NCBI GenBank assembly: GCA_049671165.1
Contig: JBATUN010000012.1
Coordinates: forward strand, 23,102-87,101
Direction: 5' to 3'
DNA: 64,000 bases
DNA from: Dehalococcoidia bacterium
GTDB lineage: Bacteria > Chloroflexota > Dehalococcoidia > GIF9 > AB-539-J10
Shown here: one piece after another, positions 19,415-52,098 of the stretch
Layout of the letters: each line of letters starts with the position of its first letter
How positions within the stretch are numbered: position 1 is the stretch's first letter
Made by a program: the position numbers and the translations under genes
The notes under the pieces: generated by a model
Seen by the model: only the letters and a program-made list of their open reading frames with translations
What the model was told of the DNA's origin: nothing
Databases searched by the model: none

Positions 19415-20860
19415 TTAGCGAGGCTTCGTCCCTTTAATTAACTCGGGATGGAGGATGCCAATGAAGGGTAAGTTGCGGTATTCTCCCTTGTAATCTAATC
19501 CATAACCCACTACGAACTCATCGGGAACCTCAAAGCCTACATAATCAAGAGGAACATTTATCAATCGGCGTGCTCTTTTATCAAGCAAGGTACAAACGCG
19601 AAGACTGGCAGGATTGTGGGCAGAAAGATGATTGAGGATGTAATTGAGGGTCATGCCAGTATCTACAATATCTTCAACCATCAGTACGTGTTGTCCCGTT
19701 ATGCTGCTATCTAGGTCTCTGGTTATCTTGACCACCTGACCGTCACCACCGTAGTATGAGATAGCCATAAAGTCCAGGGTAACCGGAAGAGAAAGGTGCT
19801 GCATAAGGTCAGCCATGAAGCAGACAACGCCCTTCAAGATGCCTACTAGCACTAACCGCTGACCAGCATAATCACGCGAAATATGTCTGGCCAGAGTTCT
19901 TACCCTTCGTTGAATTTTGGCGTGGCTATACAAAACTCGGTCGACTCCTTCTACTTTAGCCTCGCCGAGAGGGCCATAACCATATTTGGCTAACAGCTTG
20001 AGGAAATCATTTTTGTTCAGAAGCCTGATATTGACTTCAGGATAAAGCGCTCTAAGCTGGCGCAGCTTGCGGTTCTTCTCTGTCAGCAGATTTTGTTTTA
20101 ATGTGGTCAGTTCAACATAAAGGTCCAGCTCTGGTAAATAAAAATCGGGAGTGAACATCTCTGCTATTTTGTTGCCTTCCCACCTAAGAGGAAAGGAACG
20201 AGGCTCATAAAGCCATTCAATACAGTAGAAGTCAAGAAGTTTGGCAAAATCCTCCTCGCTGGGATGAGCGAAACTAGTTGGCCTCAACGTCGTAGCGGGT
20301 AATGAAGATACTCGAGACGATTTTCTTCGTTTCTCACTTGCCTTATAGTTTTGCTCTAGCAATTGATTAAGCTCTGCTCTCTCAAAGATGACGGCGCACA
20401 TATCGGCAACACTGAGGAGGAAGCTTTTATCAGCTTCGGAGAATTGGCGAGGCTCACGGGTGTAAATTCGAATCTCCCCGATAGCTTCTCCTTTCCCAAG
20501 TACAGGAACCCCGAGTATAGAAGATATTCCTTGCGCTAGTGCTATTTGGGGATATTGAATTCTTTCATCTTCAGCAGCATCGGCAATAAATACCACTTTC
20601 CCCTCAAGGATATCCGGAAGGCTTTTACGGGCATCAAGTGGCCCCTTTTTCAGATAAAGGTCGCTCAAACCATACGCGCCTACAGTGATCAAATATTCCT
20701 TTTGGGAATTGAGGGATAGGATGCGGCAGCCATTTGCCTGCATTGCCTTGGCAGTGCTTTTAGCTATAGAATTACAAATCTTCCTTAAGCCAAAAGCCGA
20801 ATTAGCAACTTTGGTTATCCGCTTAAGAGCTGAATAATAACTACCTCTGGACCTACCCAC
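19415..20860 (-). CDS. hpt: Three-module protein: GAF sensor + PD-(D/E)xK-like segment + hypoxanthine phosphoribosyltransferase
   Basis: C-terminal ~180 aa is canonical HPRT (VLMVEDIVDTGMTL PRTase loop, GFEVPDEFVVGYGLDY). N-terminal ~170 aa is GAF-like. Middle segment FTPDFYLPELDLYVELTTLK resembles a D...E.K nuclease core. One continuous ORF with no internal stop. Confidence 0.7.
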   Translation of the reverse strand: MGRSRGSYYSALKRITKVANSAFGLRKICNSIAKSTAKAMQANGCRILSLNSQKEYLITVGAYGLSDLYLKKGPLDARKSLPDILEGKVVFIADAAEDERIQYPQIALAQGISSILGVPVLGKGEAIGEIRIYTREPRQFSEADKSFLLSVADMCAVIFERAELNQLLEQNYKASEKRRKSSRVSSLPATTLRPTSFAHPSEEDFAKLLDFYCIEWLYEPRSFPLRWEGNKIAEMFTPDFYLPELDLYVELTTLKQNLLTEKNRKLRQLRALYPEVNIRLLNKNDFLKLLAKYGYGPLGEAKVEGVDRVLYSHAKIQRRVRTLARHISRDYAGQRLVLVGILKGVVCFMADLMQHLSLPVTLDFMAISYYGGDGQVVKITRDLDSSITGQHVLMVEDIVDTGMTLNYILNHLSAHNPASLRVCTLLDKRARRLINVPLDYVGFEVPDEFVVGYGLDYKGEYRNLPFIGILHPELIKGTKPR

Positions 20861-20872
20861 TTTTCTCGCACT

Positions 20873-23488
20873 CTATCCGCATTTAGTAAAGCCACAGGCG
20901 AGGCAAATGTTGCAGCCTTCCTGGTAAATCAAAGGACCACCACAATCGGGGCATTGCCCGGCCCAACTCTTAGCCATCTCAGGATTTCTGGAAGGCGTCT
21001 CAGGATTACTAGCAGTCGCCTCTTTCTTAATGTACTTCTCAAGTACGCTGGCGATAGCATCGGCACAGGATAAAATAGCATGTCCCTGCTCCCAAGCGAT
21101 AGACGGGCATCTAATGCCGCGCAGGTGCTTCACAATAGAATTTACATCTATTCCAGACCTTAGAGCCAGGGATGTTAGGCGGCTAATACCCTCAAGCTGT
21201 GCTGCCGCACAACCTCCAGCTTTTCCCAAAGTGGAGAAGACTTCGGATATTCCCTGCTGATCGAAATTCACTGTCACATAGATGTAGCCACACCCCGTGT
21301 TGACCCTTTCAGTTACACCCGTGGTAACTTTAGGCCTTTTCCGGGGAGCCAGCTTACCTTCAGCCTTTTTCGCCCCTTCACCGACAGTGAGGACCTGACT
21401 TCCTCGGCTCCTATCACGGTAAATGGTTATCCCTTTCAAGCCCTCCTGGTAAGCCAGCATATACACTTTAGCTACATCCTCGGGTGTCGCCTCGTGGGGA
21501 AAATTGACCGTCTTGGATACAGCATTATGTGTAGACTTCTGGAAGGCTGCCTGCATCTTAACGTGCCACTCAGGGGATATGTCATGGGCAGTGACAAAGA
21601 GCCTTTTTACCTCTTCGGGAACTTCTTCTATGTCTTTTAACCTCTTTCCTTCAGCTAGCTGCTTCATTAAATCCGGGGAATAGAACCCTCCCTTTTTGGC
21701 TGCCTCCTCAAAATAAGGGTTCACCTCTATAAATTCTTCGCCTTCCAGGATATGACGCACGTAGCTTAAGGCGAACAATGGTTCGATGCCGCTGGAGCAA
21801 CCAGCTATTATGCTCAGGGTGCCCGTAGGAGCAATAGTAGTTCTGGTGGCATTTCTCACTCTGAGGCCATCGGGGCGGTCATAGATGCTTCCTTGGAAAG
21901 CGGGGAATACCCCTCTTTCTTTTGCTAGTTCCATAGAGACCCCGGTCGCCTCGTCAGACATGAACTTCATCAACTCCTTTGCCTTTCCCAACGCCTCTTC
22001 CGAATCGTAGGGAATACCTAGCTGGATTAACATATCGGCAAAGCCCATCACCCCGAGCCCAATCTTTCTCGTTTTCTTGGTTGCCTCCTCTATTTCTGCC
22101 AGGGGAAATCTATTGACATCAATAACGTTGTCCAAGAACCTGACGGCAACCCTTATTGTTTCAGCCAACCTTGTGTAATCAGGATCAGTAGTCCCGTTTG
22201 TGGTTCGCAACATCCTGGCTAGATTGATGGAGCCTAGATTACATGACTCGTAAGGGAGCAGAGGCTGCTCACCGCAAGGGTTGGTGCTTACGATGTGGCC
22301 CAGTTGTGGGGTTGGGTTGTCATCGTCTATTCGGTCAATAAAGACAATACCCGGGTCGCCTGTTTCCCAGGCCAGAGCCACCATCTGGTCAAATACTCCC
22401 TTCGCATTGAGCTTACCCACTACCTCTTCGGTGCGCGGATTCTGTAGATTATAGTCAGTGCCAGTCTTGACTGCCTCCATGAACTGCTTGGTCACGGCTA
22501 CCGAGAGATTGAAGTTGGTTAGAGCTTTCGGGTCCTCCTTAGCCTCGATGAATTCCAGGATGTCGGGATGCTCAACATTGAGCATTGCCATATTGGCTCC
22601 GCGGCGCATGCCACCTTGCTTTATGACATCGGTAGTGGCATCAAAGGCTCGCATGAAAGAAACAGGGCCACTAGCAATGCCACCTGTAGAACCCACTCTA
22701 TCCCTTGCCGGTCTAAGTCGGGAAAAGGAAAACCCGGTACCTCCGCCACTTTTATGAATCAAAGCAGTATATTTAACCGCATCAAAAATAGATTCCATAG
22801 AATCCTCAATAGGTAAAACAAAACAAGCTGATAATTGCCCTAGTTCACGGCCGGCATTCATTAATGTGGGGGAGTTAGGTAAGAAATCCAGGTTTGCCAT
22901 TAACTGATAGAATGCCTCCTCCCAAAAGGAAACATCTGCTTTGGAATCGTAAAGGAGCTCGGCTGAGGCAATGTGCCTGGCGACGCGGCGAAATAACTCT
23001 TGTGGGGTCTCAATAACGCTCCCCTCTCCATCCTTTGTCAAATATCTTCTTTCCAGAACCCTTAAGGCATTATCGCTAAGCTTGACATCAGCAGTGACTT
23101 GAACCACTGGCTTGGCTAGAATAACAGGCATTTCTTTAGTCGCGGTTTCCATTTCAGGCTTAACCTCCTCTGGCTTAGCTGGCTCTTCAGCAGCCAAGAT
23201 TTCTTTTACCGCAGTCTGGATTTCAGACTCAGTGAATGGACGCTTCTGTGGACGGTGCTTTGGGACCAAGCGCTCCATTCCAGGTAGGGGTTGCTGCTGT
23301 TCCAAGCGTTCAATCACCTGGGTGGTGAGTTGCTCTATCTTGTTTCTATCACGTATACCCATTGACTCAGCATCAGCCACTACAGCTCTGAGAATTTCAG
23401 TGCGATTAAGAGATCCCTCACTGTTGTTTCTCTTATGACTATTATTTGACACAATGCTCTCCGGATATAGTATTTTGCTTTGCTTCAC
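20873..23488 (-). CDS. nrdJ: Adenosylcobalamin-dependent ribonucleotide reductase (class II)
   Basis: Motifs [21 protein letters not shown] and C-terminal Cys pairs CPDCGG...CNICLACG. 871 aa. Confidence 0.9.
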
Positions 23489-24366
23489 CTATCAGGAAAA
23501 GCTAGAGAAATAACATATCTCGCTTCACCATGACCAAAACCTTTGGATTCGATGAGTATACGTTTAATACCAGCATCAAGTCTAAAATCCTTGCGACATT
23601 TAACAGGACTGTCGTATTGGTAGGTTTTGTACAAAGTGGAAGTATGCCTAGCGAGTGTATGCACTGGCATATAGTCAGCCTTGCCCTTCGATTTTTTCCC
23701 GGGGCCTACACGCCACGCTAAACGAAGCACTTTGGACTTGGTTCTTGGCCGCTGACGCCAGAGCAGGACAATGCAAGGCTCCGCGCTAAGCTCGGCAATC
23801 CGAATAGCAGTTGAGCTAATGGAGACTCTGAAGATGTTGGCCAACCATTCAAGCGATTTAATAGATATGCCAAAACCCGATAAATGTTTCTTGAAAACTG
23901 CCTCTGGCATGAGGAGTTCTGTAGCAGCGGCGTCGCATAGGCGTTCTCTAGCTTTTGCACGGGCTATTGCAGGAGCTTGTGGGTTGAGGGTTCGAAATTC
24001 AACCTCCTCCACACAAGGTTCCAGGTTTAGCTCACTAAGTAAGGCATGCCCAATTTCGTGAGCACAGGAAAAGTTTTGCCTGGCCGAGTTATGGTTTTGG
24101 TTCACCCTAATCACGTCCCCGTCATGTAATTTGATTAGAATAGCGCTTACTTCCCCCAAATTCGCTTTTTCAATTCTTTTTATGCCCAGCAGAGGAGCAT
24201 ATTCTTCTGACAAGAATGGTGGCCTCCCATGTCCTCTCTGCTCAACCAATTGGTTCACAAGCTGTCTTGCTCGTTCAACAATAAGGCTGGTAGCTTGTTC
24301 CAAGTGGAGAGATACTGGTGATACTTGGCTGGTTGGGTTATCACAGGGCAAGTTATTCACACTCAT
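23485..24366 (-). CDS. ImmA/IrrE family metallo-endopeptidase (COG2856-like)
   Basis: HEXXH motif in SCAHEIGHALLSEL. Immediately downstream of an XRE HTH gene; overlaps the nrdJ start by 4 nt. Confidence 0.7.
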   Translation of the reverse strand: MSVNNLPCDNPTSQVSPVSLHLEQATSLIVERARQLVNQLVEQRGHGRPPFLSEEYAPLLGIKRIEKANLGEVSAILIKLHDGDVIRVNQNHNSARQNFSCAHEIGHALLSELNLEPCVEEVEFRTLNPQAPAIARAKARERLCDAAATELLMPEAVFKKHLSGFGISIKSLEWLANIFRVSISSTAIRIAELSAEPCIVLLWRQRPRTKSKVLRLAWRVGPGKKSKGKADYMPVHTLARHTSTLYKTYQYDSPVKCRKDFRLDAGIKRILIESKGFGHGEARYVISLAFPDR

Positions 24367-24369
24367 CGA

Positions 24370-24705
24370 TTACTCCCCATCATCGAAGAGGCTACCCTGA
24401 TGAGGAGGTGCTGCCGGTGGTGGCTTAAGGCCTTCCTTATACTCGTCCTCTGATAGAATGTCACTTGTGTCCTCAAATGATTTTTGTCTAGTACATTTTA
24501 GACCGAAGGCATCGAAGAGCTCCTGGAGCTTATGCATTACTGGCTCTGGCTGCCCCCTTATTCCTCTTTCGATGCTGTCTTGCGCTAATCCCGTTCGCTG
24601 AGCAAGCTGCATTGAACGCATCCCAAGCTTACTCTTCCAATAGCTGACGCATCGCCATATTTCAGTTCTCTCGTTGAGATCATGCTCTGTAGGTTGCCTT
24701 GTCAT
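24370..24705 (-). CDS. XRE-family helix-turn-helix transcriptional regulator
   Basis: HTH_3-like LGMRSMQLAQRTGLAQDSIERGIRG. 111 aa with an acidic/Pro-rich C-terminal tail. Confidence 0.65.
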   Translation of the reverse strand: MTRQPTEHDLNERTEIWRCVSYWKSKLGMRSMQLAQRTGLAQDSIERGIRGQPEPVMHKLQELFDAFGLKCTRQKSFEDTSDILSEDEYKEGLKPPPAAPPHQGSLFDDGE

Positions 24706-24751
24706 TTCCCTCCTCCTAATATTTCAATTCCATTAATAAAATTAGTTGCGT

Positions 24752-25291
24752 TCATTTTTGACCCTTCTGATGACTCCTGGCTAGTATTCCCAATTCCTCG
24801 CTAGGGAGTAGAGGTGGCTGGCTAGTAGAGACAGATGTTTTGGATTCCCTGCTTAGTAGGGTATCTACCTCTTGTTTTAGTGACGTAATATCAGCAAATT
24901 CTCGATAAACACTGGCGAAGCGAATGTAAGCAATGTGGTCCAGTTTCTTTAGTCCGTCCATGACCAAGTCACCGATATAGGAACTGGATACCTCGCGTTT
25001 GCCCACCTTGTAAAGCTCAGCCTCGATGGTGTCCACAAACTTGTCAATGGCGCCAGTGGGAAGAGGCCGTTTTTCGCAGGCCTTGCGAATACCCAGAAGA
25101 AGCTTATCCCGACTGAATTCCTCACGTCGTCCATCCTTCTTAATAATGAAGATATCATGTGGCTGTACGCGCTCGTAAGTAGTGAAGCGAGCATTGCAGG
25201 CGGGGCATTTCCTTCGCCGCCTCACTCCTTCGTCTAGACTCCGAGAGTCTATCACCCTTGATTCCTGCTTACCACAGTAAGGACAGTTCAC
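24752..25291 (-). CDS. nrdR: Transcriptional repressor NrdR
   Basis: Zn-ribbon CPYCGKQESRVIDSR...CPACNARF plus ATP-cone. Start re-placed at the GTG giving MNCPYCGK, with SD GGGAG 6 nt upstream. The ORF-track start at 25351 lies upstream of the predicted promoter. Confidence 0.85.
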   Translation of the reverse strand: MNCPYCGKQESRVIDSRSLDEGVRRRRKCPACNARFTTYERVQPHDIFIIKKDGRREEFSRDKLLLGIRKACEKRPLPTGAIDKFVDTIEAELYKVGKREVSSSYIGDLVMDGLKKLDHIAYIRFASVYREFADITSLKQEVDTLLSRESKTSVSTSQPPLLPSEELGILARSHQKGQK

Positions 25292-25322
25292 TGACTTCTC
25301 CCAAAGATTGTGGTGTGGAAGC

Positions 25323-25351
25323 ATTATACCACTAGATGTAGTAAGATGCAA
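25323..25351 (-). promoter_or_regulatory. Sigma-70-like promoter for the nrdR-xre-immA-nrdJ operon
   Basis: On the minus strand: TTGCAT, then 17 nt, then TGgTATAAT (extended -10). About 30 nt upstream of the NrdR GTG. Confidence 0.45.
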
Positions 25352-25748
25352 TACCCTACATGAAAAAAGAAGCGGTTCTTCTTTTTGATTGACACGACAC
25401 CTCTGATGAATTGTGTAATCTTGCGCCCCGAATGCTACCTGAACATACTAAGAGATACCACCAAGGCAATTGCCGATAGGGAATTGCCATTTCTTAAGTG
25501 TTTCAGGCTGTAAATCAGAATTTTGCGGAACCTGCGGCGACAGTTGGCGGACTGTCAAGGTCTGTCCTGAGCATGCTAGTCGCGTTGTCCGATTATTCCG
25601 AAACTCTGCATGTCTGAAGCCTATCCTGCTGAGCAATCTCAGGTGGAAAAAACCAGCCCTGCTACAAGGCCTGATCGGTGTCCTTCCATTATAGACCCGT
25701 CTGAGACCAGGGCAGTTCTGATCCTCGTTTCCTCTTATGCACAATACG

Positions 25749-27326
25749 CTACCTGCCATAGGAGAGCGCGTTGGTATCCTTTATGATCGTCCTGTTCAGT
25801 GACCAGATATTTCTGATGGCTTCTATCGTTCCAATCCCGGCAGCCGCTGGATGCCCACATGGACCAAAGAAGTGCCACTGAGGCGCTCCTGTGGTTCGGG
25901 CTCTGATACCGGCATACGTTGTGCCGTTCACCGTCTGTCCCAATACGTAGTTCAGGAAGTCTGGATCGTTATCGACAACTCCGGCCGTAAGATGATGCTT
26001 CATGGAGTTACATATTTTCAGCAGTAACTTGAGATCTCCCTTGGATTCCCATGTCGTTATGACCTGAAGAGGCCCAAAAACCTCGGTTGTAACCAACTCA
26101 ACATGTCGCGGAATGCTCTTCAGTGGCACGAACACGGCAGTGGGTTCAAAGCTGCCGTAGCAGGATGGCATCGAATGCCTCTTTAAGCGTTTGCCGCCGA
26201 ACTGTATCTTCGCGCCCCCGATGCTCAATAGCTTATCGATGTGCTCCTCAATCATCTCGTTGGTCCAAGTCAGCGACGGACCTATAGTAAGATCTCTTAT
26301 GCTGCGTTTGGCGGCAAGTTCTCCTATTCTCACCAGGAGGCCAAGCTTCACCCAGTTCTCGTGGACAGCCAATAGGCTCTGGGCCGAACACTTCTGACCA
26401 CTGGCCGCGTAGGCATCCTTATCGCACTCCTCTGCTACAAGGTCGATCATAGACGGGATTGCATTCGGCCCAATTATCTTCCAATCGAAGCCAGCATCCT
26501 CAATGCGGCACTTTCCTTTGGTCAGCTCCAATAGCCGCTCCGCAACCGAAGTGCTGCCGGTGAACTGTGTAAACTGAATGACCGGGTTGGTGACTAGTTT
26601 CTGCATTACCTCACCGCTGCAGTGAATCAGAAGCAGGTCCTGCGCAGGCATTCCACAATGCAGAAGCAGCCTTACGAAAGCTTCGGCAACGATGGAAGTA
26701 GTTGTCGCTTGCTTGACAACTGGTTTGTTTCCCATGTACAAGGCGCCCATCGTCTGTAAAGCCATTATCTCCAGTGGGAAATTGAAAGGTGTGATCACGG
26801 CCACGGGACCGTGGGGCCAGCGATAGTCGATGGCCTCCTGCCCCAAGTGATTGCCCGGAGTACTCTGTCCCTTGGCAAGGAACCTGACCTGATCGCCCGA
26901 GAAGTTCTCCAGGAATGTGGCTGTCACAGTGACTTCGTTGCGGCATTGTTCAGTGTCCTTGGGCATGACTCTCTGAATCAGCCTCGTGAAGTAGCTCTCC
27001 CCTTCGCTACTTCTGAGAAAATCGGCGAGCCTTTCGCTGATCTGTCCATACATCAGGTATCTTTCGACATTCATGATCGGGTTATGCAAACCATATTTGG
27101 GGCATTTTGCCAGCGCTTGAATGAAAGGTGCCAATTCCTCTTCGCTGGTACCCGGCATCTGGATGAACGGTTCGCCTGACATCGGGTCCAAGACCTCTCT
27201 GTACTTCTTGGCTTCTAGCCATCTCCCGTCGATGAAATTCATCAGATGAGCTGGCTTGGCCCCTGAGATTTCATCAGGTTGCCAAGGGAAGATGTCGTCT
27301 GGCGTCGCTGTTCTAACTCTGTTCAT
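25749..27326 (-). CDS. Aldehyde dehydrogenase family protein (P5C dehydrogenase/ALDH4-like)
   Basis: Catalytic Cys context GQKCSAQSLL and ALDH Glu region. 525 aa. Confidence 0.8.
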   Translation of the reverse strand: MNRVRTATPDDIFPWQPDEISGAKPAHLMNFIDGRWLEAKKYREVLDPMSGEPFIQMPGTSEEELAPFIQALAKCPKYGLHNPIMNVERYLMYGQISERLADFLRSSEGESYFTRLIQRVMPKDTEQCRNEVTVTATFLENFSGDQVRFLAKGQSTPGNHLGQEAIDYRWPHGPVAVITPFNFPLEIMALQTMGALYMGNKPVVKQATTTSIVAEAFVRLLLHCGMPAQDLLLIHCSGEVMQKLVTNPVIQFTQFTGSTSVAERLLELTKGKCRIEDAGFDWKIIGPNAIPSMIDLVAEECDKDAYAASGQKCSAQSLLAVHENWVKLGLLVRIGELAAKRSIRDLTIGPSLTWTNEMIEEHIDKLLSIGGAKIQFGGKRLKRHSMPSCYGSFEPTAVFVPLKSIPRHVELVTTEVFGPLQVITTWESKGDLKLLLKICNSMKHHLTAGVVDNDPDFLNYVLGQTVNGTTYAGIRARTTGAPQWHFFGPCGHPAAAGIGTIEAIRNIWSLNRTIIKDTNALSYGR

Positions 27327-27908
27327 GTGTTACCCTACCTCATTTCTGGTTTGGTGCTTGCCTCGGTGACAGGCTTGTCGGCGGCCCAGTCCTCGGCATG
27401 CTACAACAGAGATTCGTTGGGTGAAAAGAATATCGAAGTCTAGGGTTGTCGGGCAGTTGGTAAGAATACTTGTGAGTTGCCCTCTCACTTATCCTCCTGA
27501 TGCCGCTTCCACGGATTGGTTAAGTCGTCCAAGAACCCGTTAACGGCACCAGAATGCTATCTATTTCCTCAGTCTTTGTCAAACTCTGTGCTCCGCTGAA
27601 ACACTGGGTGCGTTGATCCTCAGCGCTGATTAATGAATATGGACGTTGCCGTGACAGCTCTGGTTGCAGGCTGTCGGAAGATGTCTCCCCAGTTCGAACT
27701 GCCGGGTGCCTGGTCGCCAACACGGGTCATCAGGCCAATAGTAAGTCAGTGTCGGGGAGTGGTCGTCTCTAAGGACACGCGGCGCTAATAAGTGCGTTGG
27801 TGGACAATTTCGGGAGAATGTGCTAGGTTTTCGTCTGCACAATAGTACCGGGATTAGTATCGCATTAGGCTGATGCTGAGAACATGACAAAGCTTTCTGA
27901 GTCCATCG

Positions 27909-50898: not shown

Positions 50899-51840
50899 TT
50901 AGCTACCCTCAGGCTCCTCAAATATCTCGGGGTGAATGAGATGGGCAAACCACTCCAAGCCTTTGACCAGCCTGGGGCCTGGACGTTGAGCTAAGTCATC
51001 ATCGAATGTATAGATTCTTCCCGTTTGACTGGCGTTGGTACTCGCGAGCTCGGTTGCATTGAGTGCCCAGTCATAAGACCATTCGCTCGTGATGATTATT
51101 TCCGGGTCGTGGAGGATGACCCATTCAATCTGGACCATGGCACCACCCTCGAAGTTTTCAGAGAAGATGTTCACACCGCCAGCTACATTGATCAGGTCGT
51201 CGATCCAGGTGTTCCTGCCGACAGTCCACATAGGGTCATGCCATGTGATATAGAAAACGCTCGGCTTTTCCTCAAACTCTTTGGTCTGCTCTTCTATTTC
51301 TTCAATCTTGCTTCCCATTCCGTTCACAAGCTGCGCAGCCTCCGCCTCCCTGCCGGTTATCTCTCCTATCTTCTGAATGCTGTCCAGTGCATCCTCCAGA
51401 GTCTGCGGCGCCACAGCAAACACTGCAAGCTCTTGTTCTTCCAGGGCGGGAATCAGGTCAAATCTGTGAAAATCAGTGGCCAATATCAGGTCAGGCTCTA
51501 AAGCAATTATTTTCTCTATATCTGGTCCGTAGTAATCTCCCACCTTTTCCTTGTCCTGGGCTTCCGGAGGGTAATCACAATACATTGTCACTCCCACCAC
51601 CTTGTCTCCCAGACCCAGGGCAAACAAAATCTCGGTGTTGGAGGGAGCCAGTGAGATGATTCTTTGAGGTGTCCCGTTAATGGCGACCAGCCTTCCCAGG
51701 TCATCAACTACATATTGTGTTGGCGTCTGCACAGGGGTGGTGCAGGCTGTCAGGACAAGGACTGTGCCCAGAAGCACTACCAGGGCCCAGTTTGTGCCTC
51801 GAGCCAAGATTTGCTTACGGAACATTCTCATGCCAGTCAC
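50899..51840 (-). CDS. btuF: Cobalamin-binding periplasmic protein of ABC transporter
   Basis: Class-III SBP fold, lipoprotein-like signal (VLVLTAC). First gene of btuF-cobO-(4HB)-btuC-btuD. Confidence 0.8.
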   Translation of the reverse strand: MTGMRMFRKQILARGTNWALVVLLGTVLVLTACTTPVQTPTQYVVDDLGRLVAINGTPQRIISLAPSNTEILFALGLGDKVVGVTMYCDYPPEAQDKEKVGDYYGPDIEKIIALEPDLILATDFHRFDLIPALEEQELAVFAVAPQTLEDALDSIQKIGEITGREAEAAQLVNGMGSKIEEIEEQTKEFEEKPSVFYITWHDPMWTVGRNTWIDDLINVAGGVNIFSENFEGGAMVQIEWVILHDPEIIITSEWSYDWALNATELASTNASQTGRIYTFDDDLAQRPGPRLVKGLEWFAHLIHPEIFEEPEGS

Positions 51841-52098
51841 TTTCGCCTCCCTTTACACAAAACTACTTGATTTTATACAAGTACACTTGTTTTTCACATT
51901 CTAGATATTGCCAGATGAAATGTCAAGGGATTGTCCTCGTTTAGTACCTTAGTGACACATCACCTCCTTTCTTCTATTTGCCGGGTCTTCAGGAAGCCAC
52001 AGCATAGAGACTCGACCGGCTATTCGAATCCGGTCAACACACTGAAATTGGGGAGCCTGATGTTGGCAAAATGTTAACAGAAGAAGAGGTATTACGAA

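Follow-up and report, generated by a model that had tools for sequence, protein, structure and literature searches.

A candidate CapH/CapP-type proteolytic switch inside the nrdR–nrdJ ribonucleotide reductase operon of Dehalococcoidia

The window, the whole stretch of 64,000 nt from contig JBATUN010000012.1 of a Dehalococcoidia bacterium that was analysed, contains a ribonucleotide reductase (RNR) operon in which two small genes separate nrdR, the gene of the NrdR repressor, from nrdJ, the gene of the enzyme. These two genes, here called the cassette, encode an XRE-like helix-turn-helix (HTH) protein and a zinc metalloprotease of the M78 family (Table 1). All four genes lie on the minus strand, are read in the same direction, and form one coupled unit. 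The original prediction, an earlier reading made from the DNA sequence, had described four co-directional and tightly packed genes, and its coordinates and spacings are all confirmed: 46 nt separate the nrdR stop (24752) from the ATG of the small open reading frame (ORF; 24705), 3 nt separate the small-ORF stop (24370) from the M78 ATG (24366), and the M78 gene overlaps the longest nrdJ ORF, which starts at GTG 23488, by 4 nt. ATGA overlaps and gaps of 3–46 nt couple the pair to nrdR and nrdJ at the level of translation, and the unit lies, as had been proposed, behind a single promoter. NrdR is firmly identified (TIGR00244, E=1.6e-53), and its start was corrected from homologues to GTG 25291 (MNCPYCG, ribosome-binding site (RBS) GGGAGAAG), the previously listed TTG at 25351 being the −35 hexamer of the promoter. 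The more likely start of nrdJ, judged from the sequence, is GTG 23452 (VSNNSHK…, RBS GGAGAG) and not GTG 23488; it lies 32 nt past the M78 stop, and nrdJ begins there in the homologous loci L153 and L158 (L-numbers are labels of the related loci that were compared). NrdJ residues 1–130 of the longest ORF (23488–23100, minus strand) form an extension beyond the NrdJ family models that is shared by cassette-free relatives, with a weak, partial ATP-cone match (E=0.004, residues 19–65) followed by a low-complexity acidic and Pro-containing linker.

The promoter layout is the same in about 40 related loci, with a −35 hexamer, an NrdR box in the spacer, a −10 element, and a second box 30–31 bp further on. 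The promoter proposed originally, TTGCAT-17-TGgTATAAT, is present and kept in relatives, although its −35 hexamer, which overlaps NrdR box 1, matches TTGACA at only three of six positions; because of this poor fit a consensus scan did not list it. NrdR boxes, reportedly described by Rodionov and Gelfand in 2005, were scored here on a 16-position consensus. The boxes of relatives score 10–14/16 on this scale (10–13/16 for box 2) at a spacing of 30–31 bp, with ACACTATATATTGTGG at the position of box 1, and the degenerate box 2 of the window clade scores about 8/16 by manual count, yet is conserved in that clade. To judge by its sequence, the unit resembles NrdR-autoregulated nrdR–nrdJ operons, such as the one reportedly described in Streptomyces by Borovok, Grinberg and colleagues, in which nrdR accompanies nrdJ and tandem NrdR boxes about 31 bp apart lie over the promoter. 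It differs from these in the protease cassette, which is found between repressor and enzyme or, in L020–L022, after the enzyme, and in the QLPLLP/QLSLF motif carried by the NrdR tail. Because the only recognisable promoter overlaps the NrdR boxes, expression of the cassette is expected each time NrdR permits transcription of the RNR operon.

Table 1. Features of the nrd operon and its immediate surroundings in the window.
Feature	Coordinates	Strand	Remarks
nrdR	24752..25291	-	179 aa from GTG 25291; Zn-ribbon, ATP-cone and C-terminal tail with QPPLLP; Pfam and NCBIfam
Small XRE-like ORF, type A	24370..24705	-	111 aa; presumed CapH/DdrO-like substrate
M78 zinc metalloprotease gene	23485..24366	-	293 aa, CapP/IrrE-like; PF06114, E=4.8e-14; motif AHEIGH
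nrdJ, class II (B12-dependent) ribonucleotide reductase	20873..23488	-	NCBIfam PRK08665, 1193 bits
Operon promoter	25323..25351	-	TTGCAT (25351-25346), 17-nt spacer, extended -10 TGgTATAAT (25331-25323)
NrdR box 1	25329..25344	-	TTACTACATCTAGTGG; in the promoter spacer; 11/16 against the consensus
Degenerate NrdR box 2	25298..25313	-	CCACAATCTTTGGGAG; 31 bp downstream of box 1
Mini-ORF, 17 codons	24702..24755	-	MNATNFINGIEILGGGK; relic of the original nrdJ start; ATGA overlaps with the nrdR stop and the small-ORF start
Variable segment	23121..24857	-	nrdR 3' tail, relic, small ORF, M78 gene and divergent nrdJ 5' extension
Terminator-like hairpin	25655..25671	-	ends the upstream aldehyde-dehydrogenase unit
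GAF + hypoxanthine phosphoribosyltransferase fusion gene	19415..20860	-	481 aa; 12 nt after nrdJ; Pfam

The protease matches the capP model of PADLOC (E=3e-28, residues 32–205), and its family profile matches IrrE orthologues (8slm and 3dte, E about 1e-8) and CapP (7t5t). An AlphaFold2 model, built on an alignment that included homologues 39–63% identical to it, is of good quality (pLDDT 86, pTM 0.84) and contains an M78 domain (residues 22–165), a helical subdomain (169–193), and an alpha/beta, GAF-like C-terminal domain (199–290). Foldseek aligns the model over its full length with IrrE/PprI (3dte, 3dti, 8slm and 8sln, the last being PprI bound to single-stranded DNA (ssDNA)), with about 274 columns, E=1e-13 to 1e-12, and a target-normalised TM score of 0.69–0.76; CapP 7t5t follows at E=2e-9 and the PrpR-type regulators of Mycobacterium tuberculosis at about 1e-9. 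Searched by sequence alone, this last domain has no match in the PDB. The earlier description of an ImmA/IrrE-type protein with a HEIGH motif is therefore right as to the M78 family and the AHEIGH motif, but the protein is of the three-domain CapP/IrrE type and not a short ImmA.

Several residues of CapP have candidate counterparts in this family. CapP contacts ssDNA through residues that include R90 (7 before the first His), W196 (at the start of the GAF domain), Y264 and W280, and a loop with a Cys and acidic residues acts as an autoinhibitory switch, which some CapP homologues do not have (PMC13228613). In the nrd-linked family, H103, E104, H107, E141, W203 and F277 are invariant in all 92 sequences and R96 is present in 91; the HEIGH motif occupies residues 103–107, R96 lies 7 residues ahead of the first His as does CapP R90, and W203, at which the GAF-like domain begins, is 100 residues past that His (99 for CapP W196). 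The C-terminal domain retains K275, F277 and R283 across the family, the switch loop of the window protease reads C118-V-E-E, and the conserved I62, I65, A75, L77, I86 and V88 fall on three beta-strands with a spacing similar to that of the hydrophobic surface on which CapP docks CapH. The ratio of nonsynonymous to synonymous substitution rates is 0.18–0.25 for the protease and 0.29–0.57 for the small ORF, with 0.07–0.11 for nrdR, and both cassette genes are under purifying selection. We also note three conserved Cys residues in the protease: C101 (24066–24064; 92/92 sequences), 2 residues before HExxH; C144 (23937–23935; 91/92), 3 after the Zn ligand E141, where IrrE has a Cys too; and C198 (23775–23773; 89/92), where the C-terminal domain begins.

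The position ahead of the protease gene is taken by small proteins of at least three types, A (that of the window), B, and C. The XRE HTH protein of the original prediction is XRE-like at the family level, whereas the window ORF taken alone has no significant Pfam match (HTH_31, E=0.17) and its best PADLOC match is capH at only E=0.021. Of 19 type A relatives, 9 match HTH_31, HTH_26 or HTH_3; type A profiles match an immunity repressor (E=5e-4), 434 repressor, SinR and HipB (E=5e-4 to 0.02 overall) and, weakly, the N-terminal domain of CapH (7t5u); and JGI/NCBI annotate type A relatives as XRE-family or helix-turn-helix regulators. Type A is narrow, with 52 representatives among 1.84 billion proteins, nearly all of 100–120 aa, and only M1, W17, L34 and R73 are conserved in at least 90% of 40 diverse members. 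The window protein has W17, an HTH at residues 34–51, R73, a helix (EDEYKEGL) followed by PPP, and a C-terminal QGSLF; the type A recognition helix (QDSIERGIRG) looks canonical and the N-terminal domain is basic, and the C-terminal part, which looks like a helix with a Pro-rich linker and a short motif, shows no clear dimerisation domain. CapP recognises CapH by the Trp of its HTH and by its C-terminal helix and cuts it at F82|R83, a CapH R83A variant remaining uncut (PMC13228613; 10.1101/2022.04.27.489752). W17 parallels CapH W35 and R73 parallels the P1′ Arg of that site, and by this analogy R73 is a candidate P1′ residue of the small protein. Type B, which is strongly basic, appears from profile comparison to be homologous to type A (hhalign probability 88%), and type C is found in L020–L022, where the L022 member is a clear XRE protein. 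The three types differ in their recognition helices. Common to all are a Trp or other aromatic residue in the first helix and a C-terminal acidic amphipathic helix followed by Pro, approximately [DE][DE][LC]xx[hydrophobic][hydrophobic]xP.

By sequence and modelled structure, then, the pair appears to be of the protease-cleavable repressor kind, as was first suggested, and its nearest described relatives are CapH/CapP and DdrO/IrrE. CapH/CapP (Lau et al. 2022, 10.1101/2022.04.27.489752; Calloji et al. 2026, PMC13228613) likewise combines a three-domain M78 protease (peptidase, HTH-like, GAF) with an adjacent small HTH partner; in the published mechanism ssDNA switches on CapP and PprI, which then cut CapH and DdrO (PMC13228613; 10.1101/2022.04.27.489752; PMC10904395). 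The likeness extends to the Zn ligands and, more tentatively, to the Arg 7 residues before HExxH, the Trp that opens the GAF-like domain, the Cys and acidic residues in the presumed switch loop of the window protease, and the Trp and Arg of the partner. However, CapH/CapP genes lie upstream of an immune operon, usually in divergent orientation, and CapH binds the promoter of that operon, whereas the nrd pair is co-directional within a housekeeping operon, lacks a promoter and an operator of its own, and has no adjacent defence system; its partner comes in exchangeable types, one of them with no detectable HTH signature, and has no evident two-helix dimerisation domain at its C-terminus. The best structural match is to IrrE (PprI)/DdrO of Deinococcus, again an M78 (COG2856) protease with an XRE-type substrate, which provides an SOS-independent damage response where DdrO controls a dispersed regulon through a palindromic motif (PMC10904395; PMC12828697). 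The nrd pair differs in being accessory, and the sequence identity is only about 20%. In Deinococcus the IrrE and DdrO genes do not usually form an operon-embedded cassette.

Two further systems were compared. In ImmR/ImmA of ICEBs1 and phage-like elements, reportedly described by Bose et al. in 2008, the HTH gene is also followed by a co-transcribed protease gene, as in the nrd pair with its 3-nt gap on the same strand, and ImmR is cleavable; however, ImmA is a single-domain protein of about 170 aa with neither the helical nor the GAF-like domain and belongs to an integrase-bearing mobile context, whereas the nrd protease has 293 aa, three domains, and core chromosomal flanks. PrpR/RamB of M. 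tuberculosis shares the M78-like and GAF-like folds, but its HTH is fused to the M78-like domain, its HExxH is gone, and it bears a C-X2-C-X4-C [4Fe-4S] motif together with a coenzyme A pocket (PMC6765138), whereas the nrd protease retains HExxH and has its HTH as a separate protein. A PrpR-like Fe–S cluster is ruled out by the intact HExxH and the missing C-X2-C-X4-C motif, which the three conserved Cys residues do not make.

The linkage of the protease to RNR genes is exclusive in the loci examined. A protease search of species-level genomes recovered 23 loci, all from metagenome-assembled genomes (MAGs) of Dehalococcoidia/Chloroflexota and all beside nrdJ. The order is nrdR–small–M78–nrdJ in 20 of them, and nrdR–nrdJ–small–M78 in the other three (L020–L022), whose proteases are 32–41% identical to that of the window. 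With metagenome and contig look-ups added, all 35 of 35 loci hold the protease orthologue in an nrdR–nrdJ operon, far more than chance would give; of the gene order that was to be looked for in relatives, the link to nrdR–nrdJ holds in each of these loci, in one of the two arrangements. The recurrence of the linkage in two arrangements, with proteases so diverged, points to an old and specific link and not to one lucky insertion. Members of the protease family fall into 955 protein clusters, and the loci examined all stem from Dehalococcoidia/Chloroflexota MAGs or from contigs of environmental metagenomes. Core genes flank the operon, among them priA and, upstream in several genomes, mraZ-rsmH-ftsA-ftsZ. 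The arrangement, which had been put forward as uncharacterised, does appear undescribed in the searchable literature, in which we found nothing linking nrdR or nrdJ with M78, XRE or COG2856.

The way in which the cassette entered the operon can be read from its edges. Cassette-free loci begin nrdJ directly after nrdR with MN(P/Q)AN… (e.g. MNPANQ…), at the very position occupied by the mini-ORF, and this relic is kept in both type A and type B cassettes, which share the insertion point. The relic at the old nrdJ start indicates that the cassette entered the 5′ end of nrdJ, supplied the gene with a new 5′ end, and kept translational coupling. Comparison with blastn of L092, L085, L104 and L100 to the window shows that they lack exactly 24857–23121 and have about 350 nt there instead; the comparison of L075 with L106 also bears out this variable segment, and L153 differs from L146 by a clean 1,328-nt insertion that replaces 24 nt. 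Homology between the window (type A) and L003 (type B) is broken only from 24864 to 24311, a segment that takes in the small ORF together with the nrdR tail on one side and the opening 18 codons of the protease gene on the other. Small-gene types are thus exchangeable while the protease is conserved. Between the window and L076 the cassette region (24950–23150) is 97.5–100% identical (about 99%) with flanks at 85–90%, and synonymous divergence falls below that of nrdR for the cassette genes in L001 and for the small ORF only in L002; the high identity and low synonymous divergence indicate recent recombinational transfer. Separately, the nrdJ segment 22550–21760 (minus strand) is only 67–75% identical to L076 within surroundings at 88–100%, from which nrdJ itself would be a recombination mosaic.

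We interpret the pair as an accessory proteolytic switch of the CapH/CapP (DdrO/IrrE) type that was inserted in the 5′ end of nrdJ, and give this reading a probability of about 0.5. Its parts differ in strength. By analogy with the characterised systems it is quite probable that protease and small protein are a functional ssDNA-gated protease/substrate pair. That the output of the switch is tied to RNR, for which the basis is gene linkage only, has somewhat less than an even chance, and that this output consists of direct repression of the nrd promoter is unlikely. As a mechanism, ssDNA arising from damage or from stalled forks would, by homology, activate the protease, which would then cut the small protein, probably before the conserved R73, and so part the basic HTH domain from the acidic C-terminal helix, the Pro-rich linker and the terminal motif. 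The simplest output, again by analogy, would be that cleavage lifts an inhibition which the small protein exerts on the expression of its own operon. As no operator is seen in the sequence, a target at the protein level has about the same likelihood, and could be NrdR, the N-terminal extension of NrdJ or a partner in the replisome.

Several observations weigh against this interpretation. First, when loci were picked by similarity to the window NrdR (66–93% identity) and the pair was sought within 4 kb, the cassette was missing in 54 of 62 informative related loci, where nrdR directly abuts nrdJ, and carriers and non-carriers are interleaved on the NrdJ tree; the pair-less L092, L085, L104 and L100 share synteny with the window to either side, with identities of 78–87%. 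The cassette is accessory, dispensable and recombining, and is not a fixed regulatory layer over NrdR. Secondly, one copy has decayed: in L122 (1719–2567) an in-frame fusion at about residue 62 joins the start of a type B protein to the protease, whose active site has Arg in place of H107 and so reads HELGR. Thirdly, none of nine type B proteins matches an HTH family, and type B has no PDB match. Fourthly, the equivalence of R96 and W203 with ssDNA contacts of CapP is based on spacing and not on structural superposition, and the loop Cys is present in only 33 of 92 family members, with Tyr in 38. Finally, no cassette-specific operator is found at the nrd promoter: carriers and non-carriers do not differ at any conserved promoter position, with only the −35, NrdR box 1, the −10, NrdR box 2 and the RBS present, and type A and type B cassettes lie behind near-identical promoters (L001 compared with L003), on which ground an extra operator there was rejected. 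The 46-nt leader is the only other non-coding DNA, and its imperfect 18-bp palindrome AATTTTATTAATGGAATT (24743–24726), although conserved in the window sub-clade, was rejected as an operator; it follows the nrdR tail and not the HTH subtype (L005 has the palindrome leader with an L004-like small protein, and L004 has a different leader), and is at chance level.

These promoter comparisons bear most directly on the proposal made originally, in which the nrdR–nrdJ promoter is bound by a second repressor, the small XRE protein, whose cleavage upon DNA damage derepresses the operon without LexA. The analogy with CapH/CapP, DdrO/IrrE and ImmR/ImmA favours it, as do the canonical-looking recognition helix and basic N-terminal domain of type A, and the dependence of the cassette on the nrd promoter in both of its arrangements. 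But the palindromic operator that it calls for was sought and none was found, types A, B and C present different recognition helices to one shared promoter, and the folded M78 residues show no co-variation with small-protein type, the differences by type being limited to the disordered first ~19 residues of the protease, which are part of the swapped DNA. We therefore regard a second repressor as unlikely. There is no lexA gene in the window or the fetched loci, which says nothing about the rest of the genome, and cultured Dehalococcoides is said to have LexA (Fernández de Henestrosa et al., 2002).

Patchiness and exchange could also describe a selfish cassette resembling a toxin–antitoxin (TA) system, with the protease as toxin and the small protein as a fast-evolving neutraliser, hitch-hiking in an essential operon and spreading by homologous recombination through the flanking nrdR and nrdJ. 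Makarova et al. reportedly predicted in 2009 that Xre–COG2856 pairs are type II TA systems, and the nrd pair resembles these in being two small neighbouring genes, led by the HTH gene and only a short distance apart, with a patchy distribution and a first gene that evolves fast. The interleaved distribution with one decayed copy, the near-identity of the cassette in a more diverged background, and the exchange of small-gene types over a conserved protease fit this picture too, and the features common to the small-protein types are mainly what a protease would need to recognise. On the other side, the cassette occupies a fixed niche in the nrd operons of 35/35 loci, in two arrangements and with strongly diverged proteases, and not the many unrelated contexts of mobile TA loci, it has no promoter of its own, and its nearest relatives, the characterised CapP and IrrE, are regulators and not toxins, all of which makes a TA role distinctly improbable.

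It is less probable again that the switch governs genes elsewhere, as a DdrO-like regulon or an accessory element, and uses the nrd operon as a platform for NrdR-timed expression. Such a target would agree with the failure to find an operator in cis, and in Deinococcus the DdrO and IrrE genes are unlinked from their regulon; but swappable HTH types would need matching operators scattered over the genome, and the exclusive linkage to nrdJ would be left unexplained.

The C-termini of the small protein and of NrdR suggest a further possibility. After its Pro-rich linker, type A carries Q-x-x-[LF]-[FW] (QGSLF, QGNFW and others; in the window QGSLF at residues 103–107, 24399–24385 on the minus strand), which 24 of 40 diverse members have within their final 20 residues, where shuffled sequences would be expected to give 0.4. 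The type A member P0208 ends in a type-B-like LHYLYKF instead. From these sequences the C-terminal peptides of the small proteins appear to be interchangeable modules. The NrdR tail (residues 158–163; window 24820–24803, minus strand) has QLPLLP, QLPLPS, QLSLF or QLPLF followed by acidic and then basic residues, in all of the ~100 Dehalococcoidia loci, with the cassette or without it. Both motifs resemble, and this is a resemblance only, the bacterial beta-clamp-binding motif QL(S/D)LF (PMC9690074), and the candidate clamp-binding peptides would be …PPHQGSLFDDGE and …SQPPLLPSEEL; we found no report linking NrdR with the sliding clamp. A replisome-coupled checkpoint on deoxyribonucleotide supply can be imagined, in which the small protein and NrdR are both tethered to the clamp through these motifs, and ssDNA at a stalled fork leads to the cut at R73 and so to release of a brake on RNR expression or replication. 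We consider this a long shot; if true, it would be the first CapP/IrrE-type sensor wired to nucleotide supply and not to immunity or repair, and the first clamp-linked NrdR.

Very improbable is a purely speculative scheme in which the ssDNA-activated protease acts on NrdR or on the NrdJ N-terminal extension, with the small protein as decoy or inhibitor. The protease gene does lie between both genes, NrdJ has its extension of ~130 aa with an ATP-cone remnant, and NrdR has its conserved tail; but tail and extension are unchanged in cassette-free operons, on which ground a link of the cassette to either was rejected, and there is no sign of co-adaptation. Scarcely credible, finally, is a degraded immunity remnant of a prophage or mobile element, the reading suggested by the fact that XRE/M78 pairs are typical immunity modules: 2.9 million viral contigs contain no full-length protease orthologue but only distant M78 domains, common there, of 25–34% identity and covering the peptidase part alone, PHROG matches are weak, and the core flanks, the purifying selection on both genes, and the origin of all examined loci of this 955-cluster family in Dehalococcoidia/Chloroflexota MAGs or environmental contigs rule out a prophage remnant, so that of the refuting condition set earlier, a prophage relic absent in relatives, only the absence from most relatives stands.

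The surroundings of the operon contribute some further observations. The GAF + hypoxanthine phosphoribosyltransferase fusion gene, the middle region of which has no assignment, also trails nrdJ in L003, L005, L006, L155 and L156; it is probably the last gene of the unit, and purine salvage may be co-expressed with RNR. A scan for terminator-like sites on the minus strand gave nothing where nrdJ ends or over the 12 nt that separate it from this gene, its sole minus-strand site being weak, of five pairs, and inside the fusion gene at 20214–20202, and a search of the unit for known RNA families, including riboswitches, found none. The site of the nrd operon varies, following an aldehyde-dehydrogenase gene in the window (25400–27758) and ftsZ in L155–L158; the aldehyde-dehydrogenase gene is absent in L001, L003, L075 and L106, and in L079 (3815–3863) the nrd operon adjoins sequence homologous to window 51931–51979. 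Close to the latter in the window, an NrdR-box-like 16-mer, ACATTCTAGATATTGC (51896–51911, 11/16), overlaps a TTGACA-17-TAGAAT promoter, and may or may not be a real NrdR site; the product of the gene downstream looks by eye like a periplasmic binding protein. Another NrdR-box-like 16-mer, at 51705, is inside a coding region and was dismissed as chance.

With this pair, a switch of a type already described turns up in a setting that is new both genomically and functionally, the nrd operon of a lineage of uncultured Dehalococcoidia. Pairs of an ssDNA-activated M78 protease and an XRE protein regulate phage-defence operons (CapP/CapH), mobile elements (ImmA/ImmR), and the repair regulon of Deinococcus (IrrE/DdrO), and a pair dedicated to the RNR operon, if that is what this is, would extend the sensor family to core nucleotide metabolism. 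RNR is the only enzyme class that makes deoxyribonucleotides, and such a pair would provide a testable route from DNA damage or fork stalling to RNR control, beside the dATP/ATP sensing of NrdR. Its accessory state, swappable types, recent transfer and the relic of the nrdJ start make the cassette a natural experiment on the grafting of a module into an essential operon with the promoter left untouched.

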